21,730 bases of DNA from a bacterium (GTDB lineage: Bacteria > Bacteroidota > Ignavibacteria > UBA10030). The DNA lies in the NCBI GenBank assembly GCA_043803945.1, contig JAZDJN010000116.1:1-21730 (forward strand), given 5' to 3'. A model generated the notes under the pieces. That model had not been told where the DNA came from. It saw nothing but the letters and a program-made list of their open reading frames with translations, and searched no databases. The translations under genes and the position numbers were made by a program. This document shows, in pieces, positions 1 through 18,408 of this stretch (position 1 is its first letter; each line of letters begins with the position of its first letter).

Positions 1-3000
1 ACTCGTGATGCCAACGAGTGAGCTTAAGGCGTAGATGCCGTTTGTCTGATAGTTCACTCCCGGTCCGCTCTGGTAGGTTACAGTTGCTGGATATTCCTTT
101 CCTGCCTGTCCATCCCAGATCTTGAACTGGATGAGCTCGCCTTCGTTGAATCCATCCTTCAATGTCGTCGTCTGATCGTTATCGCCCCAAACAGCAATAG
201 CTGCATTTTGTCCTTCCTGCCAAATACTGTAACCGGCACAGACCAGATCGTTATCCCGCTGGAAGAAGACACCGATAGCATCACCGGTCTTGAGCGGAGA
301 TGTAGCAATCTTCGGATTGATTGCAAACGGAACTGCAATCGTGGCATTTTTTCCCGTTGACTGTGCAAAATTCCATGAAGCAGGAGGCGGGAGAGTAGAT
401 CGAATAAACATCTGAACCACAGGACCGTCAAAACTAGAGCATCCGATATAACAGGTATCGCCTGTGGGGCTGAATGCAATCCCCCGCGGGCGGTACTGTT
501 CTGTTCCGGAAATCATATTCCAGCCGAGAGTATCGACAATCTGTTTTGTAATTGGATCAAATGCGTACCAGGTCTGTTTAGTGTATGGCGGCACTGGTGG
601 ATTCATGTCTGATCCGGAACTAACCCAGAGATAGCCGGTTATCGGGTGTCGTGTCATTGACTCGATCGCAAGTCCATCAAACAGATTTTCCATCTTTGTG
701 TACGGACCTACTGCACCATTATCGCTGTGATATCTTATCAGCGCTTTGGTGTACTGATACTCAGGCCAGAACACGTCTTTACCATCCCTTGTCACTCCAA
801 TTGATCTTGAGTAGCCGGTTGTTGCCGTCTCAACATTGCCCAGTGCAGTGAATCCTGAATTGAATACCTGAATAGAATACCCTGGCGTAACTTTTCCAAT
901 AAAAATATTTCCAGATATATCTGCCGCGGCGGCAGTTAACGTTACATTCGATTGCGGAGTTACTTTATTCAGTCCCTGTCCGGTCTTATAATCGATCCGA
1001 TATAACACAATCGATGATGAATAGAGGATGTTTCCTTGATGATCTGTTGTAAGCCCGCGGCTTGAGTTATAGAGCGTATCAGTAACCCCACCGACAGTAA
1101 TCATCTTGATAGGAGAGAACGGTGCTTGAGTACCGTTCGGGTAGAAGACATAGAGTACGCGAGTTTTAAGATATACCGATCCGACAAGTATGCTATCGGA
1201 CGCGCCATACGGACTAACCCAGACTTTGCCTTCCGGATCGACAGCAAGGCCTTGAATACCGAGTGAGCCGGTGGTTGAATTGAAAAATGTCTTGATAAAT
1301 TGCCACGTCCTCGAAACCGGAGGCGGCAGGATATTCTGTGTTGTAAAGCTATAGATTGTCGACCACCCACTTGCTCCCGCGCTATTTACGGCACTTACTC
1401 TCCAATAATATGCTGTGTTTCCTGCTGGAGTAATTAACAAAGAAGTTGATGTCAGATTCGCCTGATCATAAAGAATTGTTGAAAAATCCTGAGTACTGGA
1501 GATTTGAATTCGATATGATTGCGCACCGATTGATGCATTCCAGGTTAAATTGAACGGAATGAGAACACCGGTTGAAGCATTTGCAGGAGCAAGTAATGCT
1601 GGTGGAGCCGGAATGCCCGACGCCCTTGCATAACTCATGTTTTCGAATCCCGTTGAATCAACCGCCCCGACGCGGTACACATAGATTGTCCCTTCCGTTA
1701 CTCCCGTGTTTTCATACGTTGTTTGAGTTGTCGAATCGATCAGCGAGACATTGATTGAATCGGAGCCACGGTAGATTCTGTACTTGAACAGACCAATACC
1801 GCCGCCTGCATCCTGCCAGGAGAGATTAACAGTTGTGCCGCTTGTCGATGCGGTAAGGTTTTGCGGAGCCAGATGTAAGTTGAACTGCTGCGGCGTGCGG
1901 GCGATATTGGAGATGCGAATTTCATCGATAATGCCAGGAAAAATATATGGAGAATTCTGAAACCCTATTAACACTCCCCACGAAATCATCTTTACACCTT
2001 GAGAATAAGTCTGTGAAGCGAGTTGTCGACCGTTAAGATACAGCGTACCAACCCGATTGCCAAAGGTTCCTGCAAGATGATACCATTTATTCATGGAGAG
2101 GGCTGCGGCGTTTGAACTCAATCCACCACCAATTGAACCATCGGAAAGCGTCAAACCAAACATCACACTCAAGTCTGGATTGACATGCAAACGGGCTCCA
2201 GCCGCACAGAGAAAAGTCCAGACACCTGCTGGTGCGGCTGAAAGCTTCACCCACGCCTCAATTGTAAAGTGTTCCCCAAGGCCGGCAGGTATAAAAGATT
2301 GTACATAAATGCCATTGCTGGTCGCAGGCAAATAGCCATTTCCCATCTTGGCAGGTACGAGAGAGCCAAAGCCAAACGTTCCATTATTGCCATAGCCGCT
2401 CGCATCCATCACCGTTGGACCGCTTGCTTCATTCATATGCAGCAAGAATACAGTATTCGCATCCGGTTTGTACTCACCGGCAAGTGTCATGGGTCCTTCA
2501 GGCATAATGAGTCCGGGCCAACTCTGTTTCCTTGTCGGAAACCAATTGAGATCTCCCGCCGGAAATCCACCGGTCCCGCCAGCGTATGCTGTCGATACCG
2601 TCGAATACGAACAATTGAGCGAATCCCGCAGCCATGTATATCCTTTCCGATCGTAATCGTTCGGGTCGCTTGCACTACCATACACCCATGCACCCGGAGT
2701 ATTCTTCGACTTGTTCCCGCCAGTCGGATCTCTGTACCACCGCATCTCCTGTGTCATCAACGCAGGGACTTTGTTTAAGGTGACAGGAATTTTCTTGAAT
2801 GCATTCACTGAATCTGCACCAAGCTTACTGTTAATATGCCACGTCAACGGTGCGCCTTCACCCGTGACACCTGCAGAGGCAAACTGGTTGAAGAATGCCT
2901 GACCAGAATCAGAGATGCCATAGTAGTTGTTGGCAATGGTCCAGAGCGTTGTGGATGTGGGATACGAGAAAATCCAACTCATCCGGGGATTACCAGATTG

Positions 3001-6000
3001 ATCCAATTCACCGCTCGGAATATATTCTGCCTGGCGCGTTGGATCTGTATCATTCCCCAACGCAAATGCATCGAGAAAGAGATTATTGATGATGATGGCG
3101 TTACTCCCCAACGTTCCCAACGAAAGAAGCCCATGGAAAGACATACCATTGACGAGTGTGTTATGATCGAACAAGAAGTAACCAAGAACACCAGTGCTGC
3201 TTGCACCGCTGGCAGGATAGTGACGGACTATGCGATCTTGCCAATTCGTAAATGTGTTATTCACCAGAATTAGAGAATCACAAGGTGAATTACGCAAATC
3301 GATTGCTTTTCCTGCTCCAAGATTGGAGCGACCGAGATATCCCATATTGGCAAAAATTGTATTCGTTACTTTAATGACAGAGGCAGCACCATCTGTCCTG
3401 ATGTGATTGCCATTGGTATTCGACAGGATACAGCTATCGATTGTGATATTGAGGCCAGACATCGTTGAGGGGATGTTGATCAATGCCCCTTGCATATTCC
3501 ACCGATTGGTATCGACAAGCTCGTAGTAACCGGTGATTTCAAGATTCTTTAGTTCCAGATTTCCATTGAGCTGGAAAAGATTACCAGGCGGATTCCAAGG
3601 TGTTGAGCCTGCGTAAGCTGGAAAGAGCATAATAACCGGTTTCTTTGTTGTCGAGCTATCATTCGCTCTGAGTCTCAATGTCCAGTTACCACTGTTGATA
3701 AATACCGCGTTTGCAAGATACAATCCGCCACGCTGTAATTCATAGACGCGACTAGGCAGCTTTCCACTTGCCAGTGTGTCGTCGGCAATTTGCTGATTGA
3801 GATATTTTGCCGAAATGTTATATGGTGGAAGGCGAAGTACATTTCCTGGCTCTGTGAGTGTATGGTACTGATCAATTGCCAGGTTGGTGTAAATGTTGAC
3901 GTTGCCTTTGGGCCATCGTATGATGACAGTATCAACCGTCGCTGCACTTCCCAATCCAAAATGTGCCCAGAGGTCACCATTGGTTATTCCTCCAGCGCCT
4001 GCCTGGATATCACGCACCTGCCTCATGGCTCCCGTCACAATAGTGATTCGTGCCCCAATCCCTGCAGTGTTATTAAATATTCCCTTCGGTTTAATACCGA
4101 TCCAATGATTCGAATTGCCACTGTTATGAAGCGGTAGCTTTGACGGGCTTCCTGAATAAGAGACACCCTCATTGAAATAGAGGTCCAGCACACCGTCGGT
4201 ATCATAATCAACAAAGACAGCACTCCTGTAAGCACCTATGAAACCGGCACCAGTTTCACTTCCCACTTCGACGAATGTGCCATTGTCATTGCGATAAAGT
4301 TGTTGGATACCATTCGACTGAGCTCCGATCACTAAATCCAGATCACCATCGTTATCATAATCGCCCCAATAGGTACCACGTGAAGATGAAAATGCCGAGG
4401 CCAAGCCTACACTGCCGGCGATATCTGTAAACGTGCCGTTGCCATTATTTCTGAACAGTTTTGCCACACCATCGTTATCGCCGGTCCACGGTATAAGGAA
4501 GAGATCCATATCTCCGTCATTATCAAAGTCACCCCAGGAAGATGTAATCGCAGACCTTGCTTTTAATCCTGTTGCATTCGAGTCACTCAAAACTAGCTGT
4601 CCTCCCTGATTAAGTAGAAGCGCACATCCATAGTTTGGAGTTCTTATCGTCGGCATCCAGAGATCAAGGTCACCATCGTTGTCCACGTCCACCCAGGCTG
4701 GATTCCATGATTCTAAATTCGGAATAGACGGGGCGATTGTTGAGCCTGCCACTTCGGTAAACACGGCGCTGCCATTGTTACGAAGTATCCGAACAGGGAG
4801 TGCTAAAGCATTTGCACCTGCGAATGCAACATCAAGATCTCCATCCTTATCATAATCGCCCGCTGTGACCTGCCAGAGTGCAACTCCAGCATCGATAGTA
4901 GAAACGCCTGATTGTGCTGAAATATCCGTGAAGGAGGTAATATCATTTCTAAAGAGTCTCAAACCGCCATCGGTTATCAGTAGATCCAAATCTCCGTCAT
5001 TATCGAAATCTGCCCACACTGCACCAAATGCCGCTCTGTTATAAGGTCCTGCAATTCCCATTGAGACAGCAACATCGGTGAAGTGGCTCCCGCCGTCGTT
5101 TCGATACAAGACGTTGGGCTTGGCTTGACCGGGAATGAAGAGATCAAGGTCTCCATCGTTGTCATAATCTCCCCAAGCACAACCGAATTGGCCAAATGAA
5201 GTTGTGATACCAAGGTTATCATCGCTCGGCATGAAGAGCGCCGTTGACCTGTTGATCCTGAACATGTTGTCACTTACGTCATTCAATGTTCCATCAACAA
5301 CTTCGGAAATCCTGATACGGCATCGTGTGGAGAGTACGTTCGGTATTGTCCATGCAAACGATCCTGTTCCTCCCGGTGTGCTCGCTGTGATTTCACTCCA
5401 GGTGAGTCCGTTGTCGAGTGAATATTCAAGCCGTACATTGTCTACGGCACTGCTCGACCATGTGATATTTTGTTGTGTTCCGAATTTCCAATTATCCCAT
5501 CCATTCGGTGCCGTCAGTGTAAGAGATCGATTTCCGGTTGCTACGAAATTGGAACTCATTGCTTCAAATCCGGTCGAGTCTAAGGAAGAAACACGATAAT
5601 AGTAGACTGATCCAACAGGAACATTCAAATCGGCATACGCGGGAGAGGTTGTTGAATCGAAGAGTGCAAAGCTCCCCGGATGCCTGCCGCGATAGATTCG
5701 ATATTTCAGAAGTCCAACCAGTCCGCCTCCATCCTGCCATGTGAGATTGACAGTGGTACCGGAGATCTCGAGTGCAAGGTTTTGAGGAGGAAGATGTAAA
5801 TCAAATTCCTGCGGTGAACGCACTCTATTCGAGAGGCGCACCTCATCAATCAAGCCACTGTAGATATAGTTGCTCCCTCCTCCTCCGATGATGGTATTGG
5901 ATGAACTCGAAGAGGAAGGTGTTAATCCTGCCACATTTTTATTGAAGACCTGCACGCCGTTGATATACCCGATAATTCTTCCATTGGCATAATCATAAAT

Positions 6001-9000
6001 ACCGGCACAGTGAGTCCAAACGCCAAGAGAGATTGCTGTTTGTGAACTATCATATCGTAAATCTCCATTGGACATTCGCACGCCCATCATAAGTTTTCCT
6101 CCCGGGTTGATGGAGACAAACGATTCAAGTGATAACCCATTGAAGAATATATCGCCGGCTGTAGCTGTAAACCGATCGGCTTTGATCCATGCTTCAAATG
6201 TATACGTGGGTGCTGAGGCAGAGAGGAGAGGCTTACCCAGATCAATAACGTCGCTCGTTCCATTGAATGATCGCGCTTTATCAAACCTTCCATCTCCAAT
6301 TGTTGTGCCGTTAGCAGTGCCATAGTTGCCATGTCCGCTGGCATCATTGACGAACGATCCACCTGGTTCATTCATGTGCATCAAGAGGATGGTATTTGCA
6401 TCTGGTTTGTATTCACCTGCCAGTGTTGGCTGTGGTATGGTGCTCCGAACAAACATTTGAACCGCACCATTGTCGACATTGAAGCAGGCAACATAAGCCG
6501 TATCGCCAGTTTGGCTGAATGCAATTCCTCGGGGTCTCGCAGAGGATGACCCTGCGAATTGATCCCATCCAATGGAATCGATAATCTGTTTCGTTGTCAC
6601 GTTGTACCCGTACCATGTCTGAATAGGATACGGCAGGTTTGGAGGAAAAATATCATACCCCGTACTGAACCAGAGCAATCCCGTACTCTTTTGCCATGCC
6701 ATCGATTCAGTAACAAATCCGCTGATGCTATCGAGTTTTGTATACGGACCTGCTGCTCCATTATCGCTATGGTACTGATAGAGCTTCATATTGCTATACT
6801 CAGGCCAATAAACATCATTGCCATTTGCAGAAACAGCGATTGTGCGCGAAAAACCGGTTGATGCTCCAAAGACAGTTCCTGCAAAATTGAAATTCGTGTC
6901 ATAGATTCTCAACGGATTAGAGATGTTCACATGGCCGATAAAAATGTTTCCAGCGGCATCCCTGGCGACAGATGTCAGAGTCACACCTGCCTGGGGAATG
7001 ACCTTATTCATTCCCTCGCCGGTTTGATAATTAAAACGATAGAGTGCATCTCCGGAGGAATAGAGAATATTCCCATTCTGATCTGTTGTTAATCCTCGGC
7101 CACTATTATAGAGGGTATCGGTAATCGATGAGACAGTGATTGTCCGGATCGGCGAGAATCCGACAGATGAGCCATCTGGATTTAAAATATACAGGGCACG
7201 AATTTTCTTATAAACTCCACCCACGAATATACTGTCGGTTGCTCCATAGGGTGCAATCCACACTTTTCCCGAAGGATCGACTGCTATTCCATGGACACCC
7301 ATAGTATTCAAGGGAGTACTATAGAAAGTCTTTGCAAAATTCCACTGCAACGATACCGAAGGATTTATAATGAGCCGTGTCTTGAAATTTCGAACTTCAG
7401 ACCAGTTGCTGCCACCTACCGAATTGATCGCCTTCACTCTCCAGTAATAGGTAGTCAATGAGGCAAGTGTTGGCGTGTTCACCGAAGTCCCAGTGGTTGT
7501 CATATCCATCATCAGCGCAGCAAAGCCAGCATCGGTGGCGACCTGTACTTGATAGGAACCCGCACCAACAACCGTATTCCAGAAGAGAGACATTTGCACA
7601 GGCTGATCGATATATCCAGTTGAAGGGCTGGTTAATGTTGGAATTGCCGGTATGGTAAGATTGAGCGGTGTATCATTCCACCATTTCCAATAGAGCGTTG
7701 TGTCTTTTGGACTGGCCTTGGTGGGAATGGACCTCCAACTATCTGTGGCGACAACATTCGCATTGGGATCATCAGCATCGACGATAACAAATTTGTAAGA
7801 GATATTATCAACAAATTCTGAAACAGGAAAACGTATTGAGCCCGACCAGAAATTCGAACCATCATAAGGATTGCTGACATTCGGGCGAGGTGATTCTTTT
7901 CTCAGAATAAATGTCTTACCATAATAGCCTAGAGTATTACCTCCGCCACGCACACCCACTAACTGCCCTGCTTGCGTGAATCCTTTTACTTGCATATTGA
8001 CACGGAAGTATACATCGATTGAATCGGGCTGATCGACATACGGTTTCCAGTACTGTGGTTGCGGTGTGCGGCCATTAACAAATTCCAATGGCAAGGTTGT
8101 GTCTGCAGCACCAACAATAAGAACACGGTTATTCGTTGTAGGATTCACAACCTGGAGATCCGTCTCCCAACCATTGTTTTGTTGACCCGTTGGTAATGGA
8201 TTTGCGACATGAGTAAAATACTTATATTGAAGTGTATCACCCGGAGTCAGGAGGATCGTTTTTCTCCAGTAATCTCCTCCGATATTGGTCATGATACCTT
8301 GTGAGGTTTCATTCCAAGGACCGAGGTATAGGATATTCCCCCGGATTTGTATGAAGGAGTTCGGTTTCAGTGTATCCGGAACAGTTGAGGTGTTAGCGGT
8401 GAAAGTCACATTGACAGGACGTGGAGGAATAGTTGCTTTAAATACACCTCCACAGCTTGTCCCCGCGTACACGAATCCGCTTGTGTGGATGAGAAGGGAG
8501 AGTACATTGAGATTCGTCAAACCGTTATTGGTTTGTATCCAGGTTGCACCGTTATCGATAGAACGAAATACACCCCCACCACTCCCCGAATAAACGCACC
8601 AACTAGAATCGATCGCTAAAGCCCTAATGTCGGTATTTAATAACCCCGTGTTCACCTGGTTCCAACTACTGCCACTATTTGTTGAAAGGTATACACCGCT
8701 GCCAGCCGTCCCTGCAAAAATGGAATTGGGCCAATTAATTACAAGAGACCTCACCTGGGCAGGGAAGAACGTAGAGAGTTGGGTCCAGGTCACCCCATTG
8801 TCTGTCGAGCGAAATATGATCCCTCTAAAGCTCGGTGTGCCCTCGGTGGCCCCCGCAAATAGGTCGCCATTCCAATTAATTGCAAGTGTTCTAATTGCTT
8901 CGCCTGTTAAACCTGTGCCCACCTGTGTCCAATTAGCACCATTATCAGTCGATCGGAATATCGCTGAAGTATAATTCCCATTGAGGAACACCTGGCCGCC

Positions 9001-10284
9001 TGCGAACAAATAACCATTCGACTTTGCTGCAAATGCAAAAACCCAGGGCCATTGCCCCGATGAAAGGTTGAGCGTTGCCTGTGTCCATGTTGCTCCTTCA
9101 TCTGTCGACCGGAATATTCCAGACTGGGAACCGGCAAAAACGTGTCCGTCTGCATTCGTCCCCATTGCTTCGGTGTAGAGTTGGTTCAATCCTGTATTCG
9201 CATGGTACCAACTTCCACCGCCATCCGTCGAACGCGCGACTCCATCCCCATAGACACCGGCAAAGAGATGGCCGTTGGGAGTGGTGACAGTAGCATAGAC
9301 GACGGTAGCCTTCAATGGAACTTCAGTCCAATTATCGGCATTGTCGGTAGAGCGAAAGATGCCACCGCTGGTTCCTGCATAAATAGTCCCGCTCGAATTC
9401 ACGAGGAGGTCAAACGTGAGGGGGCTGGCAAGACCGGTGCTTGTCGTTGTCCAGTGTTCACCGTTATCCGTCGAGCGAAAAATTCCTCCAACAGCACCGG
9501 AGGCAGTACTTGCGAAGAGAACACCAGATGAATTGAAGGCGAGGCTCGTAACATTCGTGAGAGTTAAACCGGTGTTAATTTGAGTCCATGTGTCGCCATT
9601 ATCCGTAGAACGAGAGACGCCATAGTTCCCGCTGCCGATAAAAAGATGTCCGCTTGAGTTGAAAGCTGTCGAATTCACATAATCATACACTGTGCCTGTC
9701 CTTACCTTCACCCAACTATCCCCATCGTCCTGCGATCGGAAGACACGACCACTGTCACTGCCCGCGAAGATAGTTCCACTGGAGTTGACAGCAACCGAGT
9801 AAAAAGTACCGTTCAGCAATCCTGCGCCTACCTGAGTCCAATGTCCACCGTTATCGGTTGATCGAAAAACTCCCTCACGCATTCCAGCGAAGAGATACCC
9901 GTTTGTATGAATTGCTAAAGATTGGATAGACATGTTGCCGGGAAATCCTGTATTCACCTGAGTCCATGTTATACCATTGTCTGTGGATCGCTGCACACCC
10001 CAACTTCCGCAGAAGACGTGGCCGGAAGAGTTAATCGCGATTGCCTCGATCCCTTGCATTGACACGCGTGCCCATGAGGTACCGCCATCTGTCGAACGAA
10101 GCAGTCCGCTGTAGGCACCAGCGGCGAACAAGCGGCCGTCTGCATCAATTGCCAGTGACCTGAACACACCTCCGGAAGGTCCACTTGTCTGCTGCCAGAT
10201 GCTTGACTGAGCGCTAAGCGTGGTGAAAATAGAAAGAAGGGTGACAATACAAAGAGCAATGCGATGAATGGACGAACGTGTCAT
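1..10284 (-). CDS. Giant secreted multidomain surface protein, >=3428 aa, 3'-truncated by the window edge (signal peptide, Asp-box propellers, 2 CBM20-like, FN3, NHL-like propeller, LamG, FN3, Ig-like, FG-GAP propeller + ASPIC/UnbV, beta-helix, LamG, 2 FN3, NHL-like propeller, unknown domain)
   Basis: Manual translation from ATG at 10284 (RBS TAAGGAGG upstream) found no stop down to position 1. N-terminus MTRSSIHRIALCIVTLLSIFTTLSAQ is a Sec-type signal peptide. Recognisable domain motifs occur throughout in the same frame. Absent from the ORF track because there is no stop in the window. Confidence 0.95.
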   Translation of the reverse strand, partial: MTRSSIHRIALCIVTLLSIFTTLSAQSSIWQQTSGPSGGVFRSLAIDADGRLFAAGAYSGLLRSTDGGTSWARVSMQGIEAIAINSSGHVFCGSWGVQRSTDNGITWTQVNTGFPGNMSIQSLAIHTNGYLFAGMREGVFRSTDNGGHWTQVGAGLLNGTFYSVAVNSSGTIFAGSDSGRVFRSQDDGDSWVKVRTGTVYDYVNSTAFNSSGHLFIGSGNYGVSRSTDNGDTWTQINTGLTLTNVTSLAFNSSGVLFASTASGAVGGIFRSTDNGEHWTTTSTGLASPLTFDLLVNSSGTIYAGTSGGIFRSTDNADNWTEVPLKATVVYATVTTPNGHLFAGVYGDGVARSTDGGGSWYHANTGLNQLYTEAMGTNADGHVFAGSQSGIFRSTDEGATWTQATLNLSSGQWPWVFAFAAKSNGYLFAGGQVFLNGNYTSAIFRSTDNGANWTQVGTGLTGEAIRTLAINWNGDLFAGATEGTPSFRGIIFRSTDNGVTWTQLSTFFPAQVRSLVINWPNSIFAGTAGSGVYLSTNSGSSWNQVNTGLLNTDIRALAIDSSWCVYSGSGGGVFRSIDNGATWIQTNNGLTNLNVLSLLIHTSGFVYAGTSCGGVFKATIPPRPVNVTFTANTSTVPDTLKPNSFIQIRGNILYLGPWNETSQGIMTNIGGDYWRKTILLTPGDTLQYKYFTHVANPLPTGQQNNGWETDLQVVNPTTNNRVLIVGAADTTLPLEFVNGRTPQPQYWKPYVDQPDSIDVYFRVNMQVKGFTQAGQLVGVRGGGNTLGYYGKTFILRKESPRPNVSNPYDGSNFWSGSIRFPVSEFVDNISYKFVIVDADDPNANVVATDSWRSIPTKASPKDTTLYWKWWNDTPLNLTIPAIPTLTSPSTGYIDQPVQMSLFWNTVVGAGSYQVQVATDAGFAALMMDMTTTGTSVNTPTLASLTTYYWRVKAINSVGGSNWSEVRNFKTRLIINPSVSLQWNFAKTFYSTPLNTMGVHGIAVDPSGKVWIAPYGATDSIFVGGVYKKIRALYILNPDGSSVGFSPIRTITVSSITDTLYNSGRGLTTDQNGNILYSSGDALYRFNYQTGEGMNKVIPQAGVTLTSVARDAAGNIFIGHVNISNPLRIYDTNFNFAGTVFGASTGFSRTIAVSANGNDVYWPEYSNMKLYQYHSDNGAAGPYTKLDSISGFVTESMAWQKSTGLLWFSTGYDIFPPNLPYPIQTWYGYNVTTKQIIDSIGWDQFAGSSSARPRGIAFSQTGDTAYVACFNVDNGAVQMFVRSTIPQPTLAGEYKPDANTILLMHMNEPGGSFVNDASGHGNYGTANGTTIGDGRFDKARSFNGTSDVIDLGKPLLSASAPTYTFEAWIKADRFTATAGDIFFNGLSLESFVSINPGGKLMMGVRMSNGDLRYDSSQTAISLGVWTHCAGIYDYANGRIIGYINGVQVFNKNVAGLTPSSSSSSNTIIGGGGSNYIYSGLIDEVRLSNRVRSPQEFDLHLPPQNLALEISGTTVNLTWQDGGGLVGLLKYRIYRGRHPGSFALFDSTTSPAYADLNVPVGSVYYYRVSSLDSTGFEAMSSNFVATGNRSLTLTAPNGWDNWKFGTQQNITWSSSAVDNVRLEYSLDNGLTWSEITASTPGGTGSFAWTIPNVLSTRCRIRISEVVDGTLNDVSDNMFRINRSTALFMPSDDNLGITTSFGQFGCAWGDYDNDGDLDLFIPGQAKPNVLYRNDGGSHFTDVAVSMGIAGPYNRAAFGAVWADFDNDGDLDLLITDGGLRLFRNDITSFTDISAQSGVSTIDAGVALWQVTAGDYDKDGDLDVAFAGANALALPVRILRNNGSAVFTEVAGSTIAPSIPNLESWNPAWVDVDNDGDLDLWMPTIRTPNYGCALLLNQGGQLVLSDSNATGLKARSAITSSWGDFDNDGDMDLFLIPWTGDNDGVAKLFRNNGNGTFTDIAGSVGLASAFSSSRGTYWGDYDNDGDLDLVIGAQSNGIQQLYRNDNGTFVEVGSETGAGFIGAYRSAVFVDYDTDGVLDLYFNEGVSYSGSPSKLPLHNSGNSNHWIGIKPKGIFNNTAGIGARITIVTGAMRQVRDIQAGAGGITNGDLWAHFGLGSAATVDTVIIRWPKGNVNIYTNLAIDQYHTLTEPGNVLRLPPYNISAKYLNQQIADDTLASGKLPSRVYELQRGGLYLANAVFINSGNWTLRLRANDSSTTKKPVIMLFPAYAGSTPWNPPGNLFQLNGNLELKNLEITGYYELVDTNRWNMQGALINIPSTMSGLNITIDSCILSNTNGNHIRTDGAASVIKVTNTIFANMGYLGRSNLGAGKAIDLRNSPCDSLILVNNTFTNWQDRIVRHYPASGASSTGVLGYFLFDHNTLVNGMSFHGLLSLGTLGSNAIIINNLFLDAFALGNDTDPTRQAEYIPSGELDQSGNPRMSWIFSYPTSTTLWTIANNYYGISDSGQAFFNQFASAGVTGEGAPLTWHINSKLGADSVNAFKKIPVTLNKVPALMTQEMRWYRDPTGGNKSKNTPGAWVYGSASDPNDYDRKGYTWLRDSLNCSYSTVSTAYAGGTGGFPAGDLNWFPTRKQSWPGLIMPEGPMTLAGEYKPDANTVFLLHMNEASGPTVMDASGYGNNGTFGFGSLVPAKMGNGYLPATSNGIYVQSFIPAGLGEHFTIEAWVKLSAAPAGVWTFLCAAGARLHVNPDLSVMFGLTLSDGSIGGGLSSNAAALSMNKWYHLAGTFGNRVGTLYLNGRQLASQTYSQGVKMISWGVLIGFQNSPYIFPGIIDEIRISNIARTPQQFNLHLAPQNLTASTSGTTVNLSWQDAGGGIGLFKYRIYRGSDSINVSLIDSTTQTTYENTGVTEGTIYVYRVGAVDSTGFENMSYARASGIPAPPALLAPANASTGVLIPFNLTWNASIGAQSYRIQISSTQDFSTILYDQANLTSTSLLITPAGNTAYYWRVSAVNSAGASGWSTIYSFTTQNILPPPVSRTWQFIKTFFNSTTGSLGIQGLAVDPEGKVWVSPYGASDSILVGSVYLKTRVLYVFYPNGTQAPFSPIKMITVGGVTDTLYNSSRGLTTDHQGNILYSSSIVLYRIDYKTGQGLNKVTPQSNVTLTAAAADISGNIFIGKVTPGYSIQVFNSGFTALGNVETATTGYSRSIGVTRDGKDVFWPEYQYTKALIRYHSDNGAVGPYTKMENLFDGLAIESMTRHPITGYLWVSSGSDMNPPVPPYTKQTWYAFDPITKQIVDTLGWNMISGTEQYRPRGIAFSPTGDTCYIGCSSFDGPVVQMFIRSTLPPPASWNFAQSTGKNATIAVPFAINPKIATSPLKTGDAIGVFFQRDNDLVCAGYSIWQEGQNAAIAVWGDNDQTTTLKDGFNEGELIQFKIWDGQAGKEYPATVTYQSGPGVNYQTNGIYALSSLVGITS
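390..1612 (-). repeat. FN3 + NHL-like beta-propeller, copy B
   Basis: AYYWRVSAVNSAGASGWS, QGLAVDPEGKVWVSPYG, DTLYNSSRGLTTDHQGNILY, YHSDNGAVGPYTK, RPRGIAFSPTGDTCY, VQMFIRST. Confidence 0.85.
1625..2490 (-). repeat. LamG + FN3, copy B
   Basis: TLAGEYKPDANTVFLLHMNE, FTIEAWVK, KWYHLAGTF, YLNGRQL, GIIDEIRISNIART, APQNL...VNLSWQD...KYRIYRG...VYRVGAVDSTGFE. Confidence 0.88.
2520..3835 (-). other. Probable right-handed beta-helix (pectin-lyase-like fold) module within the giant CDS
   Basis: Asn-ladder-type strands ITIDSCILSN, VTNTIFAN, LVNNTFTN, FDHNTLVN, IINNLFLD, IANNYY; ends in GFPAGDLNWFP. Fold is inferred. Confidence 0.6.
3845..5200 (-). repeat. Seven FG-GAP/VCBS Ca-binding repeats followed by an ASPIC/UnbV domain (CRTAC1-like unit)
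   Basis: Seven DxDxDGxxD motifs (WGDYDNDGDLDL, WADFDNDGDLDL, GDYDKDGDLDV, WVDVDNDGDLDL, WGDFDNDGDMDL, WGDYDNDGDLDL, FVDYDTDGVLDL), then NHWIGI...GIGARITI...AHFGLG...VDTVIIRWPKG. Confidence 0.92.
5545..6425 (-). repeat. LamG/concanavalin-like + FN3, copy A (paralog of 1625-2490)
   Basis: TLAGEYKPDANTILLMHMNE, YTFEAWIK, VWTHCAGIYD, YINGVQV, GLIDEVRLSNRVRS, then PPQNL...VNLTWQD...KYRIYRG...YYYRVSSLDSTGFE. Confidence 0.88.
6440..7655 (-). repeat. FN3 + NHL/SMP30-like beta-propeller, copy A (paralog of 390-1612)
   Basis: TTYYWRVKAINSVGGSNWS (FN3), then HGIAVDPSGKVWIAPYG, DTLYNSGRGLTTDQNGNILY, YHSDNGAAGPYTK, RPRGIAFSQTGDTAY, VQMFVRST. Confidence 0.85.
7680..8420 (-). other. Two tandem CBM20-like (starch-binding-type) beta-sandwich modules within the giant CDS
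   Basis: VNVTFTAN...IQIRGNILYLGPWN...GDYWRKTILLTPGDTLQYKY...WET and DVYFRVNM...LVGVRGG...FWSGSIRF...YKFVI resemble the CBM20 pattern (V-x-F...G...LG-x-W...W...YKY/F). Family call is by resemblance. Confidence 0.55.
8435..10200 (-). repeat. Asp-box/BNR repeats within the giant CDS (13 S-x-D/N-x-G-x-x-W type motifs, probably two beta-propellers)
   Basis: Repeated units of about 40-48 aa such as GVFRSTDNGGHW, GVSRSTDNGDTW, GIFRSTDEGATW, GVFRSIDNGATW. Boundaries approximate. Confidence 0.9.
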
Positions 10285-10403
10285 GACACAATCCTCCTTA
10301 AGAAAAGATTCAAAAAAGCTTCCAACTTCTCCAACATCATCCCAACGGGATTCTCTTGCACGAAAACAAGAACTATGTCGAATAGTTGTGTGGCGCTATA
10401 ATC

Positions 10404-10508
10404 TCAGAAAAGTGGTTTGGAAAGAAACTGAAGATTACGATGGTGGGCGGTGAATATTGTGCATTGTGTACTGCACGTAAGAATCTGAAAGGATTGTCGA
10501 TGAATCAT
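10404..10508 (-). CDS. Possible 34-aa upstream/leader ORF (MIHRQSFQILTCSTQCTIFTAHHRNLQFLSKPLF)
   Basis: ATG at 10508 preceded by AAAGGGGA; lies inside the predicted 5' leader of the giant gene; no recognisable homology. Confidence 0.25.
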   Translation of the reverse strand: MIHRQSFQILTCSTQCTIFTAHHRNLQFLSKPLF

Positions 10509-10542
10509 GACGCCCATCCCCTTTAGTGGGAAACGGAATGTT

Positions 10543-10562
10543 CTGTAGTTGTTGAACTACAG
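10543..10562. promoter_or_regulatory. Perfect palindrome CTGTAGTT-N4-AACTACAG at the predicted transcription start (candidate operator or 5' hairpin)
   Basis: 8-bp perfect inverted repeat 5 nt downstream of the minus-strand -10 box. Confidence 0.5.
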
Positions 10563-10567
10563 TGCGC

Positions 10568-10596
10568 AATGTAGAGAATTTGTTCAGTAGTGTCAA
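10568..10596 (-). promoter_or_regulatory. sigma70-type promoter for the giant gene
   Basis: TTGACA (10596-10591), 17-nt spacer, TACATT (10573-10568). Confidence 0.7.
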
Positions 10597-10765
10597 CGAC
10601 TGGAATCACGCCTGGATATTGGTAAATAGTAGCGGTGAATTACTTAATACCTAAGGGATACCAGCGGCCCTGAAGCGTTTATCAACCATCTTTATTGTGA
10701 GTAACTAATTCGGCAACTCCGAAATTTGTTGAGTCACTGTGAATTGCGTAAGCAATTCAAATCCA

Positions 10766-10794
10766 TTGCATATCGGAAAAAATCGAATTATACT
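10766..10794 (+). promoter_or_regulatory. sigma70-type promoter for the DHS-like/ODC genes
   Basis: TTGCAT (10766-10771), 17-nt spacer, TATACT (10789-10794). Confidence 0.7.
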
Positions 10795-10820
10795 TTGTCC
10801 GTAATTGCTCAGTAAGACCT

Positions 10821-10948
10821 CCACGGATGAAACACCGATTTGCCCCGTTCAACGGGGTGAACACAGATAATGATTTTATGTGTTATTTCTTCGAACCAGA
10901 TCTAATACTGCTTCCTTTTCTCAGTGATTTTCAGTGTGCCATCGGTGG
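10821..10948. repeat. Degenerate REP/MITE-like inverted repeat with an inner 15-nt palindrome
   Basis: Left arm CCACGGATGAAACACCGAT...GAACACAGA is imperfectly complementary to TCAGTGATTTTCAGTGTGCCATCGGTGG. CCCCGTT-C-AACGGGG at 10843-10857 interrupts the left arm. Confidence 0.5.
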
Positions 10949-11147
10949 TTAAATTTGACTCGAAATTGCCGTTCGTACAACTATCAGGATGCTGAACAAA
11001 GATAGCCGCCAAAACGCCAAGAGCGCCATGATGATAATTACATTACATTTTTAATCGGATACGAGCACCTCTGCTCGCCTATTTCTAGATCGGCAAGAAA
11101 GAAAACAAAACCTTTTTTCTAAAAAGCAGCACGAGAAAGGAATAATC

Positions 11148-12335
11148 ATGGAACACCACCACAAAAAAGAATGTCCCGGAAAGGATAAATATTTATCAGG
11201 AAAGCGGGTACTCCCAAAGCCAATTACCAAGAAGAGCACCATCGCCTCCGTCATCGACAACCTGGACGCTTATAATGGCGGAAGATTACGTGCAGCTTGT
11301 CAATTGATGCGTGATCATTATTCGAAAAAGGATGTCACAATCGGCTTGAGCATTGCCGGCGCATTGACCCCTGCCGGACTCGGCCCCTCCACCATTATTC
11401 CGCTGATGAATCATGGATTTGTGGACTGGTTTGTCGCCACAGGTGCGAATATGTACCATGACCTCCACTTTGCCTTCAACATGCCGATGTTCCGCGGCAG
11501 TCACAATGTCGACGATGCCGATTTACGCGACAAGGGTGTTACCAGAATCTATGATATCCTCTTCGACTATGAGGATGTCCTCATGGCAACAGACCGCATC
11601 CTGCGGAAGATCATGCTGCGCCCCGAGTTCCAGAAAGAAATGGGAACGCGGGAATTCTACCACCACCTGGGAAAAGTGGTAAATGATATTGAGCGAAAAA
11701 ACAAATTAGGAGAGGTCAGCGTCCTTGCGGCGGCATACCGAAACGGTATTCCCGTCTTTACTTCATCACCGGGCGATTCGACCATCGGCATGAACGTCGC
11801 CGGCCTTGAACTCCTCGCCGAAGCAAAAGGACTCAAAGACTATTTTAAATTGAAGATCAATCCGAGTATCGATGTCAACGATTCAACCGCAATCATCCTG
11901 AACGCCAAGAAGTATGAAAACAGCAAGACCGGCGTGCTCCTCATCGGCGGCGGCAGCCCGAAGAATTTCCTGCTCCAGACCGAGCCGCAGATTCAGGAAG
12001 TGCTGATGATACCGGAGGCAGGACAGGACTACGACATCAATATCACCGATGCACGCCCTGATACCGGCGGACTTTCCGGCGCCCCGCCAAGTGAAGCAGC
12101 AAGCTGGGGAAAGATCGATCCGACCAAATTGGACGAAACGGTCACTGCGTACATCGATGTGACAGTCGCATTTCCCTTGTTAACGGCCTACGTCATCCAG
12201 ACGACGAAACCAAAGAAACTGAAACGGTTGTATGAACGCGGAGATGAGCTGCGTCAGAAGTTGATCAAATCGTATCTCGAGAATAATCAGGAAGTCGGCG
12301 AGCTCAGCGGTATGATGAAGCAGCTCCCGCGCTAA
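11148..12335 (+). CDS. speY: Deoxyhypusine synthase-like protein (SpeY-type, probable homospermidine synthase)
   Basis: 395 aa. Motifs AGALTPAG, TGANMYHD, DSTIG, GGGSPKNF and DTGGLSGAPPSEAASWGKI with the imine-forming Lys of DHS. AAGGA RBS. Confidence 0.88.
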   Translation: MEHHHKKECPGKDKYLSGKRVLPKPITKKSTIASVIDNLDAYNGGRLRAACQLMRDHYSKKDVTIGLSIAGALTPAGLGPSTIIPLMNHGFVDWFVATGANMYHDLHFAFNMPMFRGSHNVDDADLRDKGVTRIYDILFDYEDVLMATDRILRKIMLRPEFQKEMGTREFYHHLGKVVNDIERKNKLGEVSVLAAAYRNGIPVFTSSPGDSTIGMNVAGLELLAEAKGLKDYFKLKINPSIDVNDSTAIILNAKKYENSKTGVLLIGGGSPKNFLLQTEPQIQEVLMIPEAGQDYDINITDARPDTGGLSGAPPSEAASWGKIDPTKLDETVTAYIDVTVAFPLLTAYVIQTTKPKKLKRLYERGDELRQKLIKSYLENNQEVGELSGMMKQLPR

Positions 12336-12347
12336 AAGATATGCAAG

Positions 12348-12390
12348 CCTTCCGAAGGTCATTCTGGAATCTCATAGAACCTTCGGAAGG
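12348..12390. repeat. REP-like inverted repeat between the DHS-like gene and ODC
   Basis: CCTTCCGAAGGT (12348-12359) and ACCTTCGGAAGG (12379-12390) are perfect 12-bp complements; each arm is itself a small palindrome (CCTT-NNN-AAGG). Confidence 0.7.
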
Positions 12391-12429
12391 TCGCTCATTA
12401 TTTTCACTTGCATGAGGAATAGACCTGCG

Positions 12430-13563
12430 ATGAAAAAAGAACTGCTTACGTCGGTGGAGGAGCATGGCACTCCGTTATTCATCCTCGATCACAACATCCT
12501 CCGGGAAAATTACAGAACATTCAAGACACATCTTCCGCGGGTGCAGTGTTATTATGCAGTCAAGGCAAACTCCACCCAGCAGATCGTCGAGACTCTCTTC
12601 AAGGAGGGATCAAGCTTCGACGTCGCCTCGTATAATGAATTCATGCAGGTATACAAGTATATTAAAAACTTCGATAAAGATGAAAAGAAGCGCTTTGTCT
12701 GGGACAAGATAATCTTTTCGAACACCATAAAAGACCGTGCAACGCTGAGCAAGATCAAACAATACAAACCGCTCGTCACGTACGATAACATCGCCGAGTT
12801 GAAAAAACTGAAGGAGTATTGCGATACCGCAGGGCTTGTGGTTCGCCTGAAGGTTCCCGATACCGGCTCGCAGGTGGAGATGGCGTCAAAATTCGGAGCT
12901 GACCCATCCGATGCACAACAACTGATTCAGCAGGCGTTCGATATGGGATTAAACGTTGAAGGCATCAGCTTCCACGTCGGTAGTCAATGCACTCACTTTG
13001 ACAACTATGTTGCTGCGCTGGCACTCACGTCGGAAATATTTCATGACGCCCGGAAGAAGGGCTTTAACTTAAACCTGATCGACATTGGCGGCGGATTCCC
13101 GGTACCATACGATCCACAGGTCCCTGAGTTCCAGAAGCTGGCTGCTCTCTTGAATGCAGAATTCAAACGCTTGTTCCCCGACGATATCGAAATTCTCGCC
13201 GAACCAGGGCGCTTTATTGTTGCCACAGCGGCAACCCTTGTCTCGGAGATAATCGGCAAGGCACGTCGCGACGGTAAAATATTTTACCACATCAACGACG
13301 GTGTGTACCATACATTTTCGGGCGTCGTCTACGATCATTGGATCCCCAACTTCAGTGCGTTTAAAGAAGGAGAACATGAAATTTGCGCTGTGGTCGGACC
13401 AACATGCGACAGCTTCGATAAGATTACGCTTTCCGCAGAGTTGCCGGCAAATTTGGAAGTCGGCGATTACCTGTACACAGAAAACATCGGCGCATACAGC
13501 ACAGCATCATCAACCAAGTTTAACGGCTTCGACGGCGCGAAGATTATCCATACAAGTTTTTAG
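12430..13563 (+). CDS. Fold-type III PLP decarboxylase, ornithine (or lysine/ornithine) decarboxylase
   Basis: YAVKAN (PLP Lys), FDVAS, SKFGA, FHVGSQ, DIGGGFP, AEPGRF, YDH specificity element, GPTCDSFD, GAYS. Start 12430 is preferred over 12412 because GAGGA at 12414-12418 can serve as RBS. Confidence 0.9.
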   Translation: MKKELLTSVEEHGTPLFILDHNILRENYRTFKTHLPRVQCYYAVKANSTQQIVETLFKEGSSFDVASYNEFMQVYKYIKNFDKDEKKRFVWDKIIFSNTIKDRATLSKIKQYKPLVTYDNIAELKKLKEYCDTAGLVVRLKVPDTGSQVEMASKFGADPSDAQQLIQQAFDMGLNVEGISFHVGSQCTHFDNYVAALALTSEIFHDARKKGFNLNLIDIGGGFPVPYDPQVPEFQKLAALLNAEFKRLFPDDIEILAEPGRFIVATAATLVSEIIGKARRDGKIFYHINDGVYHTFSGVVYDHWIPNFSAFKEGEHEICAVVGPTCDSFDKITLSAELPANLEVGDYLYTENIGAYSTASSTKFNGFDGAKIIHTSF

Positions 13564-13594
13564 GTTACACCAAGGTTATCCAAAATATACATTC

Positions 13595-13901
13595 TAGTGC
13601 GAAGGCGTCCCCGCCGAGCATAAAAAATTTTCCTAATGCCCTCGGCGACCTGCCCGTCTTCTAGAACTGTGAATGACCGCTGTCAAAGACGGCGGCTTCC
13701 AAAAGAAAACGCAAAGTCATTCCGTGATGCTTCAACACGGAATCCAGATCAAAGAAATCATTTGATTTCTGATCTGCTGTCCGGTATCAATGCGTTCTCT
13801 CTTAAACGCAAGAGAGGCATAGCCATATGTACATAACCACCGTCAGAGACGGTGGGTTTCTACGCTTTACTAAACGAGCAGGCGGGGACGCCTTCGGGCT
13901 A
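13595..13901. repeat. Nested palindrome cluster (REP/BIME- or MITE-like)
   Basis: Outer perfect 16-bp IR CGAAGGCGTCCCCGCC (13600-13615) / GGCGGGGACGCCTTCG (13881-13896) encloses at least five hairpins. Confidence 0.75.
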
Positions 13902-13976
13902 ATGCTTTAATTACTTTTTGGTCTACCTCATTCGGTTTTCACTTCTCCCCCGCACAATCTTTTACTATCTTCCTCT

Positions 13977-14711
13977 ATGGCAAAACGCGCACTCTCATTC
14001 AATCCTATTGGTGTGGTGAAAACACCCCACAACTCAAAGTATGATGCACCCCGGCAACCGGCTTCGGCAACAAAGTCATCTGTCGGTGTTATTACATTGA
14101 ACGAAGGATCAAACTTTGAGCAGGCGCTCGAGGATCTCCAGGGATTCGATTATATCTGGGTGCTCTTCTGGTTCCATAAAAACAAGAACTGGAAGCCGAA
14201 GGTGCTTCCACCCCATGGAGTAAGAACGAAGCGCGGTCTCTTTTCCACCCGATCACCTCATCGGCCAAATCCGATAGGATTGTCACTCTGCAAACTGATC
14301 GATGTCAAAGGCCGTACCATCCGCATTGAGAATCCTGATATGCTCGATGGCACTCTCGTACTGGATATCAAACCTTATCTTCCTCATGCAGAAGCATTTC
14401 CGAATGCACGAAGCGGTTGGATTAATGAATCAAACGAACAGAGCTACCCTGCCTATTCAGTACTCTTCGCTCCAGAAGTCACCAGAGTATTGGAGGAATT
14501 GGATGCCGATAAGCGTCAGGAAATCACTACATACCTCTCAAACCTTCTGGCGCACGATCCCTTCCCCCATTCCTATCGGAGGATCAAAGTATTGAAGGAT
14601 GGCACATCGATGATTGCCGTCAAGCGCTGGAGATTTATTTATGGCATAAAAGAATTGAACGTGCACGTCTTCGGAATCGCTCACGACAAAGAGCGGAGAA
14701 GCAGGGCATGA
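13977..14711 (+). CDS. trmO: tRNA (N6-threonylcarbamoyladenosine37-N6)-methyltransferase TrmO with RelE-fold C-terminal domain
   Basis: PIGVV, APRQP, LQGFDYIWVLFWFH, RGLFSTRSPHRPNPIGLS, DMLDGTLVLDIKPY are TrmO/TsaA/YaeB motifs. Confidence 0.93.
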   Translation: MAKRALSFNPIGVVKTPHNSKYDAPRQPASATKSSVGVITLNEGSNFEQALEDLQGFDYIWVLFWFHKNKNWKPKVLPPHGVRTKRGLFSTRSPHRPNPIGLSLCKLIDVKGRTIRIENPDMLDGTLVLDIKPYLPHAEAFPNARSGWINESNEQSYPAYSVLFAPEVTRVLEELDADKRQEITTYLSNLLAHDPFPHSYRRIKVLKDGTSMIAVKRWRFIYGIKELNVHVFGIAHDKERRSRA

Positions 14712-17884: not shown

Positions 17885-18302
17885 TCACTGCGGCTTTTGA
17901 AAAACATATAGCTTACCATCCGCATCCGAAATAATATATAGTTTATTCTGGACGATTGTAATTCCTTCTCCCTTGGAAAATGGAATGGAGTATTCGGAAA
18001 GCACCGTGCCGTTCATATCGAGCTTCAAGACCTTCTGCGATTCATCGCTGACAATCCATAAACAATTTGCCTGTTCCTTATAAAATATATCCGAGAGGTC
18101 AAGAGCTGCAGTAATTTCTTTCCGCGCGAGCTCCTGTCCTCGATAGTACTCCAGCATCAACCGGGGTGCCTTTTCATTGAGAATAAAAAGATGGTTCCTC
18201 TTATCGATCGTGACACCCTCAAGCGCATTGTTCGGAACGGTGGCAACCTTGACCATGAAGGAAGAAATCTTTGTTCCATTTGTCAGATAGGCTGTAACCA
18301 TT
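17885..18302 (-). pseudogene. C-terminal fragment of an SdiA-regulated/YjiK-like beta-propeller protein (5' part missing)
   Basis: NNALEGVT, LFILNEKAP, DLSDIFY, LWIVSDES, KGEGIT, LYIISD motifs. No signal peptide or convincing RBS; abuts the porin fragment directly. Confidence 0.7.
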
Positions 18303-18408
18303 GGATCCACATGTCTCGAAGATCAAGAACCGCTTCGGCAAAATCAATATCCATCTCGGCTTGCCAATCCTTCCAGAGGACAGACTTGAAGGCGAAGGTC
18401 AGTCTTCT
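18303..18408 (-). pseudogene. Internal ~35-codon fragment of an OprO/OprP-like phosphate-selective porin
   Basis: (F)RRLTFAFKSVLWKDWQAEMDIDFAEAVLDLRDMWI matches the N-terminal RR-x-R...W...(E/D)-x-DFA...(K/R)D-x-(W/Y)I strands of Porin_O_P and is unlike a helical DUF47 C-terminus. Confidence 0.6.

Follow-up and report, generated by a model that had tools for sequence, protein, structure and literature searches.

A giant open frame of an Ignavibacteria-class bacterium that may encode a surface-attached glycan-binding scaffold

A stretch of 21,730 nucleotides from an Ignavibacteria-class bacterium (contig JAZDJN010000116.1 of assembly GCA_043803945.1, positions 1 to 21,730 of the forward strand; hereafter the window) begins with an open frame of more than 10 kb on its minus strand. 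The locus raises the question of whether so long a frame is a single genuine gene and, if so, what kind of protein it would encode. An original prediction, made from the letters of the DNA, had described a secreted mosaic of at least 14 modules, built by concatenating whole cargo proteins in an architecture that it did not recognise. The answer we favour, with a probability of about 0.6, is a genuine chromosomal gene that encodes the first 3,428 residues of a surface-attached scaffold of ~3,820 residues, exported by a type IX secretion system (T9SS) and serving in multivalent glycan binding and adhesion.

The open frame and its modules

When open-ended frames were admitted to the list of open reading frames (ORFs), window positions 1 to 10284 of the minus strand proved to be one frame of 3,428 sense codons, the translation of which contains zero stops. 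It starts with an ATG at 10284-10282, is open at its 3' end and runs off the window at base 1. As the default listing skips frames that run off their source, the giant ORF is absent from the ORF track, just as had been noticed. By our own arithmetic, stops make up ~5% (about 1 in 20) of random codons at 47.6% GC, and the chance of 3,428 codons remaining open is ~1e-77. The ribosome-binding site that had been proposed could be read directly as a Shine-Dalgarno-like AAGGAGG (10293-10299, minus strand) 8 nt 5' of the ATG. Residues 1-27 (10204-10284, minus strand) form a plausible Sec-type signal peptide, again as proposed, which by inspection has a basic n-region (MTRSSIHR), a hydrophobic core and a likely cleavage site between Ala and Gln of LSAQSS, leaving Gln at +1. 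The same Ala-Gln context is found in the signal peptide of a neighbouring gene (16649-17821) and in the consensus of the stand-alone relatives described below. A lipoprotein signal was considered for the giant and rejected by inspection, the sole Cys of the leader being residue 12, N-terminal to the hydrophobic core. The proposed promoter fared no better than chance, with two sigma-70-like matches in 10200-11200 (the minus-strand one 284 nt upstream) against 2.1 expected from shuffles, although the sigma-70 hexamers and their consensus may not apply to this bacterial group.

To draw up a module map, we searched the entire translation and 27 overlapping tiles of 250 residues, 7 of which had no Pfam family, with Pfam and refined the result by BLAST of the tiles against the whole protein and by motif counts. 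Together with two confident AlphaFold models, this showed that the protein holds about 17 modules, among them three families of β-propeller. Both the predicted minimum of 14 modules and the three propeller families hold, and the map supports a mosaic of unlike modules rather than one repeated unit. Behind the signal peptide lies an Asp-box region of the BNR/Sortilin-Vps10-like type (residues 28-620; 8425-10203, minus strand, as are all coordinates in this and the next paragraph) with 13 Asp-boxes at residues 64-582, spaced about 41-52 residues apart in internal repeats that are 33-45% identical. This region, which probably folds into two propellers, matched Sortilin-Vps10 (92 bits), BNR and BNR_2, in agreement with the expected Asp-box propellers. 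Two CBM20-like modules had been named next; the first, module a (residues 621-745; 8050-8424), is above the Pfam cut-off for PF00686 (33.9 bits versus 23.3), whereas the weaker module b (residues 746-880; 7645-8049) falls below it (19.9 bits alone). The a+b pair is nonetheless conserved side by side in two giant relatives, P0002 and P0044, and the sole solved match of module a was PDB 2z0b. An FN3/Ig module of the Ig_Rha78A_N type (residues 881-978; 7351-7644; PF25788, 39.7 bits) leads into the first NHL-like propeller with its linker (residues 979-1325; 6310-7350). It is followed by a first LamG module identified by Pfam as Laminin_G_3 (residues 1326-1497; 5794-6309) and by its paired FN3 (residues 1498-1590; 5515-5793), which is 57% identical to the fn3-positive copy at 2808-2884.

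The centre of the protein starts with an Ig-like domain that had not been listed before (residues 1591-1682; 5239-5514); it has weak Kre9_KNH and Reelin subrepeat B matches and is 39-49% identical to repeats of giants carrying PF10342 or PF21471. Next come a seven-bladed FG-GAP propeller (residues 1683-2070; 4075-5238) with seven DxDxDGxxD motifs (FG-GAP_3, 122 bits in 6 stretches) and a UnbV_ASPIC domain (residues 2071-2150; 3835-4074; PF07593, 56 bits). This is the complete FG-GAP/ASPIC unit that had been claimed, and it matched solved human CRTAC1 (PDB 9etn_A) at E 1.7e-23. Its layout of seven FG-GAP blades, bearing Ca-type DxDxDGxxD motifs, and a UnbV_ASPIC domain behind them is that of the CRTAC1/ASPIC family, but here the unit sits inside a giant bacterial protein as a single internal module. 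A right-handed β-helix belonging to no Pfam family (residues 2151-2610; 2455-3834) separates it from a second LamG module (residues 2611-2802; 1879-2454), assigned by Pfam and self-BLAST; the two LamG modules, as predicted, account for 129 bits in two stretches. Then follow an FN3 module (residues 2803-2888; 1621-1878; PF00041, 48.1 bits), a further FN3/Ig module of the Ig_Rha78A_N type that is below the cut-off and 36% identical to residues 896-1000 (residues 2889-2988; 1321-1620), and the second NHL-like propeller (residues 2989-3335; 280-1320), 50-57% identical to the first. Four FN3 modules had been counted, and four there are: the Ig_Rha78A_N and fn3 matches at 39.7 and 48.1 bits pass their cut-offs, and the other two modules are 36-57% identical to those. 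The last module, where the gene is cut by the window end, is a conserved C-terminal domain of no known family (residues 3336-3428; 1-279). In self-BLAST, residues 896-1286 matched 2909-3301 at 50-57% identity and residues 1287-1577 matched 2600-2884 at 33-57%, indicating that an FN3-propeller block and a LamG-FN3 block have each been duplicated.

Two of the modules were modelled with AlphaFold 2 (AF2). For the NHL-like propeller at 979-1325, a search of solved structures with the single sequence gave no match, and Pfam NHL was borderline in the giant (20.9 bits versus a cut-off of 20). Its model reached a predicted local distance difference test (pLDDT) score of 87.3 and a predicted TM-score (pTM) of 0.85, with about 25 strands, which suggests six blades. 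In Foldseek searches 3fvz, the peptidyl-hydroxyglycine lyase with its NHL-type propeller, gave the best TM-score (0.62), and seven-bladed WD40 proteins gave 0.50-0.54. A profile of 46 sequences searched against the PDB matched the NHL/PknD-derived Pizza6 designs (E 4e-13), PknD itself (E 3.9e-8) and, weakly, Brat and TRIM71. Residues W31, G60, G86, G93, R169 and R274, invariant in the propeller family, are kept in both window copies. These results bear out the assignment of two NHL-like propellers.

The β-helix was likewise recognised by its structure. No Pfam family was found in the tiles that cover it (tiles 18-20), no polysaccharide lyase (PL) family profile matched, and a single-sequence search of solved structures also returned nothing. 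A profile search against the PDB gave hits that were due solely to sorting tails, which the alignment contained because of its stand-alone members. The AF2 model, built from a 42-sequence alignment (pLDDT 90.1, pTM 0.92), is a right-handed β-helix, as had been supposed, and its best PDB match in Foldseek was the PL6 alginate lyase 7dmk (E 1.3e-4, TM-score 0.41-0.45); chondroitinase B, RbmB and PL3 pectate lyases followed, all best matches being at 8-17% identity. What the module shares with the PL6 lyases 7dmk and chondroitinase B (1dbg), its best structural matches, is the right-handed parallel β-helix; it differs from them in its TM-scores of 0.32-0.45, its identity of 13-17% and the lack of any sequence-level match to solved lyases. 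PL6 lyases possess a Ca site and a Lys/Arg catalytic pair. The module thus has the fold of PL6, but neither the Chondroitinas_B profile nor sequence similarity to solved PL6 members places it in that family. In the Atlas its nearest clusters were Beta_helix, DUF4957 and DUF5123, together with one in which 34% of members carry Chondroitinas_B. Relatives of the module fall into 511 representative clusters at E <= 1e-3, 248 at E <= 1e-10 and 98 at E <= 1e-30. The family invariants D19, D200, R204, G235, N303, G427 and P445 (module numbering) are all kept in the window copy, and between module positions 179 and 226 the family has a run of nearly invariant D, R, H and N. A lyase-like role of the β-helix may be taken as a lead.

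Giant relatives, stand-alone forms and the missing end

We next asked whether this architecture stands alone. In a full-length search, at least 39 other proteins of 1,898-5,149 residues, among 1,761 candidates scored, matched at E <= 1e-3; in no case did the best local alignment extend over more than 21% of the query, and 20 of the 39 carry the type A T9SS sorting domain PF18962 in a precomputed column. Mapping of the query modules onto 11 of these giants and onto eight long proteins from the β-helix search showed that the same modules recur in other orders and numbers, and that order and number differ in every one; P0003, for example, has eleven LamG-FN3 pairs. The closest relative, P0002 (4,066 residues, on a separate 13,956-bp contig), shares with the window protein a similar signal peptide, CBM20a-CBM20b at 67-68% identity, FN3-propeller-LamG-FN3 at 40-72% followed by a variable cassette, and then LamG-FN3-FN3-propeller at 33-83% and the C-terminal domain at 92%. 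It departs from the window protein in its N-terminal block, which consists of a short Ycf48-like BNR, FN3 and LamG-FN3, in its centre, where an unrelated segment of ~400 residues replaces Ig-FG-GAP-ASPIC-β-helix, and before the C-terminal domain, where it has an extra FN3-LamG and a block of ~550 residues. P0044 is complete at 2,887 residues and comprises, in order, signal peptide, CBM20a, CBM20b, LamG, FN3, β-helix, Ig, FG-GAP, ASPIC, LamG and, farther along, C-terminal domain, tail region and sorting domain. More widely, the giant type A T9SS cargo proteins of Ignavibacteria and relatives (P0044, P0004, P0009, P0011 and L001) have a common module vocabulary, a signal peptide where complete, and a C-terminal cassette in which the C-terminal domain, ~270 residues, another copy of the domain and a sorting tail follow one another.

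The architecture that had seemed unrecognisable is therefore not isolated, as at least 39 other giants reuse its modules in other orders and P0002 shares its backbone. The exact architecture is unique in the collection searched, but the kind is familiar, namely a giant modular T9SS surface protein of the Fibrobacteres-Chlorobi-Bacteroidetes (FCB) group, and has many relatives without names. In that group, giant surface proteins with multiple domains are, broadly speaking, commonplace. A keyword search of open-access full text returned no paper on this mosaic family, which is no proof that none exists. More general work on giant bacterial proteins includes 10.1101/2023.11.21.568195 and PMC11573180.

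The relatives also indicate how the protein would end. The sequence of P0002 breaks off at precisely the residue where the window protein does (the last codon, window 1-3), and the last ~45 residues of the two are identical. That two independent contigs break at one residue suggests a repeat shared between paralogues, and such a repeat in the paralogous tails probably breaks the assembly there. A genome scan yielded no contig extending the giant gene. The C-terminal domain (3336-3428) had no Pfam match and fell into unnamed clusters only in the Atlas search, and its copies in P0002, L001, P0009 and P0044 are 59-92% identical. Past this domain L001 continues for 394, P0009 for 401 and P0044 for 391 residues, each to a sorting tail, and in all four complete relatives examined (L001, P0009, P0044 and P0011) a second, weaker copy of the domain ends 119-128 residues before the C-terminus. 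As three relatives continue for 391-401 residues, the full protein probably has about 3,820 residues and a type A T9SS tail.

The sole relative to come from the genome scan was L001 (Ignavibacteria bacterium RIFCSPLOWO2_12_FULL_56_21), which is itself cut by a contig end; it reads propeller, LamG, ~550 residues and C-terminal domain before its 394-residue continuation. The gene after it (L001 4533-5282) overlaps the giant by 4 nt and encodes 249 residues in which this C-terminal domain stands between a signal peptide and a sorting tail. A larger T9SS-tailed protein follows at 5300-7954, in which several stretches resemble the C-terminal domain by eye. The 249-residue protein and its larger follower suggest that the C-terminal domain also circulates on its own.

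The window has another gene that is likely to encode T9SS cargo, at 16649-17821 on the minus strand. Its product of 390 residues has a signal peptide with the Ala-Gln context, two Lamin Tail Domains (LTD) and a tail of the form ...QNYPNPFNPST...KMLLLR, which matched FlgD_ig at 49 bits and Por_Secre_tail at 24.5 bits, below the cut-off of 27. In the T9SS of P. gingivalis, as described in PMC8545088 and PMC8754138, the C-terminal domain of the cargo is the outer-membrane export signal and is then cleaved, and the cargo is attached to anionic lipopolysaccharide. PMC5837995 reports that signal-peptide cleavage exposes Gln in most Bacteroidetes substrates of signal peptidase I (SPI), and that BLAST suggests that the T9SS may occur in Ignavibacteriae. 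The Ala-Gln context of the giant fits the Gln-exposing cleavage reported there. Its signal peptide, the tails of its relatives and the T9SS-tailed neighbour point to putative T9SS export and attachment to the cell surface.

Do the modules also occur outside giants, as the original prediction had supposed? For the two that we tested, propeller and β-helix, stand-alone T9SS cargo is the predominant form. Among 110 near-length relatives of the propeller, PF18962 was present in 105, a length of 420-480 residues in 103 and an N-x-PNPF tail motif in 104, with source names including Ignavibacteria, Balneolaceae and Rhodothermales. For the β-helix, 67 of the 148 other relatives listed were 500-619 residues long with the module starting near residue 30, 52 of these 67 had the tail motif, and 14 of 16 relatives scanned with Pfam carried Por_Secre_tail. 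The passengers of such stand-alone cargo (propeller proteins of 430-450 and β-helix proteins of 540-580 residues) share 30-73% identity with the embedded modules and retain their invariants; each stand-alone protein has its own signal peptide and sorting tail, whereas the embedded copies have neither. Indeed, the giant protein contains no internal signal peptide, N-x-PNPF motif or Por_Secre_tail. The idea of a concatenation of whole cargo proteins therefore fails, and only the passenger domains are embedded.

Quick, unrooted trees of both modules suggest how they may have spread. In the tree of 51 propellers, five of six embedded copies group in one clade (SH-like approximate likelihood ratio test (SH-aLRT) support 96) and window copy 2 pairs with the last propeller of P0002 (SH-aLRT 100), which points to spread by duplication within giants rather than by repeated capture; the sixth embedded copy, the N-terminal propeller of P0043, sits among stand-alone forms. 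The tree of 48 β-helices requires five changes between embedded and stand-alone states, four of them forced by well-supported branches, and places the window copy as sister to a 762-residue protein. As both trees are unrooted, they fit fusion and fission equally. Overall, the trees suggest that modules are duplicated inside giants and also pass between these and the small cargo genes.

A more speculative proposal, which we hold to be rather doubtful, is that paralogous giant T9SS genes in one genome use their near-identical C-terminal export cassette and shared backbone as recombination anchors, swapping passengers among giants and with stand-alone cargo genes. Such cassette exchange would fit the break of two contigs at the same residue with ~45 identical residues before it, the common backbone and variable cassettes of P0001 and P0002, and the at least 4-5 switches between stand-alone and embedded forms in the β-helix tree.

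A glycan-binding scaffold and competing readings

In the model that we favour, the N-terminal signal peptide would direct Sec export, and the sorting domain beyond the window would then be recognised by the T9SS, which would carry the protein across the outer membrane, where it would most likely stay attached to the cell surface. There it could act as a long multivalent scaffold for glycan binding and adhesion, made up of lectin-type modules (two CBM20-like and two LamG), three kinds of β-propeller (Asp-box, NHL-like in two copies, and Ca-binding FG-GAP/ASPIC) and FN3/Ig spacers, and its polysaccharide-lyase-like β-helix may cut or grip acidic polysaccharide. The lectin-type modules and the lyase-fold β-helix make a glycan-binding scaffold, possibly with one catalytic module, our best guess. 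The giant belongs to a population of giant T9SS mosaics in which a backbone and a shared C-terminal export cassette are retained and passenger modules may be gained, lost, duplicated and reordered; several of these modules also circulate as small stand-alone T9SS cargo genes.

Several observations weigh against this model. The likeness of the β-helix to PL6 lyases is weak (TM-score 0.41-0.45, 13-17% identity) and comes with no PL profile match; CBM20 module b is under the Pfam cut-off, and module a matches a solved CBM20 only at E 0.0042. The sorting tail lies outside the window, so that T9SS export rests on relatives, and no T9SS machinery gene is present within the window. Both trees came from quick searches with SH-aLRT support only and without a root. 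The third-position GC content (GC3) of the giant gene is 0.451, compared with 0.552 in four housekeeping neighbours (11148-16528), a gap that could reflect low expression, amino-acid bias or foreign origin. The correlation of codon usage between segments of the giant is 0.39-0.67, a range that lacks a control for segment size and, given the short segments, is uninformative about a chimera. Of the alignments that cross module junctions, several are weak (29-44% identity) or may partly reflect approximate module borders, and the junctions between signal peptide and propeller and between propeller 2 and the C-terminal domain are crossed by no independent protein. An automatic model for a glycosylhydrolase, taken up below, also scored above its cut-off.

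The protein could instead be mainly a multi-enzyme for polymer attack, in which a GH74-like Asp-box endoglucanase and a β-helix lyase are targeted by CBM20 and LamG, with degradation taking precedence over adhesion. We regard this as unlikely but not far-fetched. CBMs usually accompany enzymes, the β-helix is nearest to PL6, PL3 and RbmB lyases and has its nearly invariant cluster of D, R, H and N at 179-226, and the Asp-box region has weak PDB matches to cellulose-binding or xyloglucanase-labelled chains (5jwz, 6p2m, 4lgn and 6p2o; E 4.6e-6 to 2.5e-4). However, the best matches of that region in a PDB sequence search, themselves weak, were the designer 'Cake' propellers, which argues for consensus repeats rather than an active site. 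GH74 enzymes have 14 blades, seven in each of two propellers, and their catalytic Asp residues lie in the cleft; the giant shares Asp-box blades with GH74 and Sortilin-Vps10 propellers, but its repeats are consensus-like, with 13 recognisable boxes. The NCBIfam model 'F510_1955 family glycosylhydrolase' did score above its cut-off (188.5 versus 175), but we rejected this match as evidence for a hydrolase because the score is summed over four repeat stretches. Moreover, no glycoside hydrolase (GH) or PL family of Pfam was detected anywhere in the giant, either in the whole protein or in the 27 tiles, and most of its mass consists of modules without known catalysis (FN3, LamG, FG-GAP and NHL-like). 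Apart from its bearing on function, this equivalog match, at 8425-10203 on the minus strand (residues 28-620), might lead an automatic annotator to mislabel the whole giant as a glycosylhydrolase.

We also think it improbable that we are dealing with a surface adhesin that attaches to cells, to proteins or to the surfaces of minerals and particles, acting in biofilm, aggregation or contact with prey or partners, in which the carbohydrate-type modules are structural only. Adhesins that bind proteins commonly contain FG-GAP/ASPIC, NHL-like and Asp-box propellers as well as FN3 arrays. The CRTAC1 match (E 1.7e-23) and the relatives built largely of Ig, FN3 and FG-GAP arrays are consistent with such a function, but the CBM20-like and LamG modules (two of each) and the β-helix, with its lyase fold and preserved family invariants, point to glycans, in line with the scaffold that we propose.

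Alternatively, the long frame might be an assembly chimera of separate cargo genes or a decaying pseudogene. The assembly is fragmented and the gene is cut at a contig end, its codon usage differs somewhat between segments and from that of its neighbours, and its modules exist as separate genes elsewhere. Nonetheless, there are zero stops in 3,428 codons, and every join preserves the reading frame and falls at a domain border, where neither a signal peptide nor a sorting tail has left a remnant. We found no long or near-identical internal DNA repeat in the giant gene (the best were 44-89 nt at 60-80% identity), that is, none long or similar enough to cause a mis-join. GC content per segment ranges from 0.449 to 0.508. 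Alignments to independent proteins, from other contigs, cross 14 of the 16 module junctions with at least 40 residues on each side, and the strong crossings come from P0002 (56-76% identity), P0011 (69%) and P0044 (55-61%). The invariant residues of both module families are kept. We therefore judge a chimera or pseudogene very improbable.

SprB uses a type B sorting tail and has SprB repeats. An SprB-type adhesin moved by the T9SS-linked gliding machinery has hardly any credence here: although the giant is a T9SS-type surface protein of the FCB group and PMC8754138 names gliding motility among T9SS functions, its relatives end in type A tails (PF18962) rather than type B tails as in SprB, no SprB-repeat family was detected in the whole protein or the tiles, and it is a mosaic of unlike modules instead of a repeat array.

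Neighbouring genes and wider meaning

Upstream of the giant gene, an unusually long gap of 863 bp (10285-11147) separates it from a divergent deoxyhypusine synthase gene. The gap is touched by two small ORFs only (61 and 69 residues), matches nothing in Rfam and contains, on the plus strand, two hairpins that resemble terminators; no RNA genes were found in the whole window. Beyond the deoxyhypusine synthase lie genes for an ornithine/diaminopimelate (Orn/DAP) decarboxylase, TrmO and a U32 peptidase, and then the gene of the 390-residue LTD protein. The deoxyhypusine synthase is 91-92% identical to proteins named from Bacteroidota/Ignavibacteria metagenome-assembled genomes and 87% identical to one from Ignavibacteriales. 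It adjoins the Orn/DAP-type decarboxylase gene (11148-13563, plus strand, for the two), an arrangement that suggests a small polyamine operon. Four window proteins and P0002 were looked up for near-identical members; those present in the collection sit in singleton clusters at 90%, and two of the sequences are absent from it. Farther along, two minus-strand ORFs look truncated, namely an SdiA-regulated ORF at 17885-18310, which spans profile positions 104-242 of 249, and a Na/sulfate symporter ORF at 19145-20332, which begins at profile position 90 of 472. Extending them from stop to stop adds few codons, and they may be fragments, frameshifted genes or short variants.

For genome annotation, the locus illustrates that the largest genes go missing most often, both where contigs end and where ORF callers discard open-ended frames. 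The giant protein neither opens nor settles a long-standing question, but it points to two abundant and uncharacterised module families, the lyase-fold β-helix with its 511 representative clusters and the NHL-like propeller. If our reading is right, it shows how uncultured Ignavibacteria draw on a common set of T9SS passenger domains to build surface proteins of very large size. Should cassette exchange among paralogous giants also prove true, the glycan-binding and glycan-degrading repertoire at the cell surface would diversify quickly.

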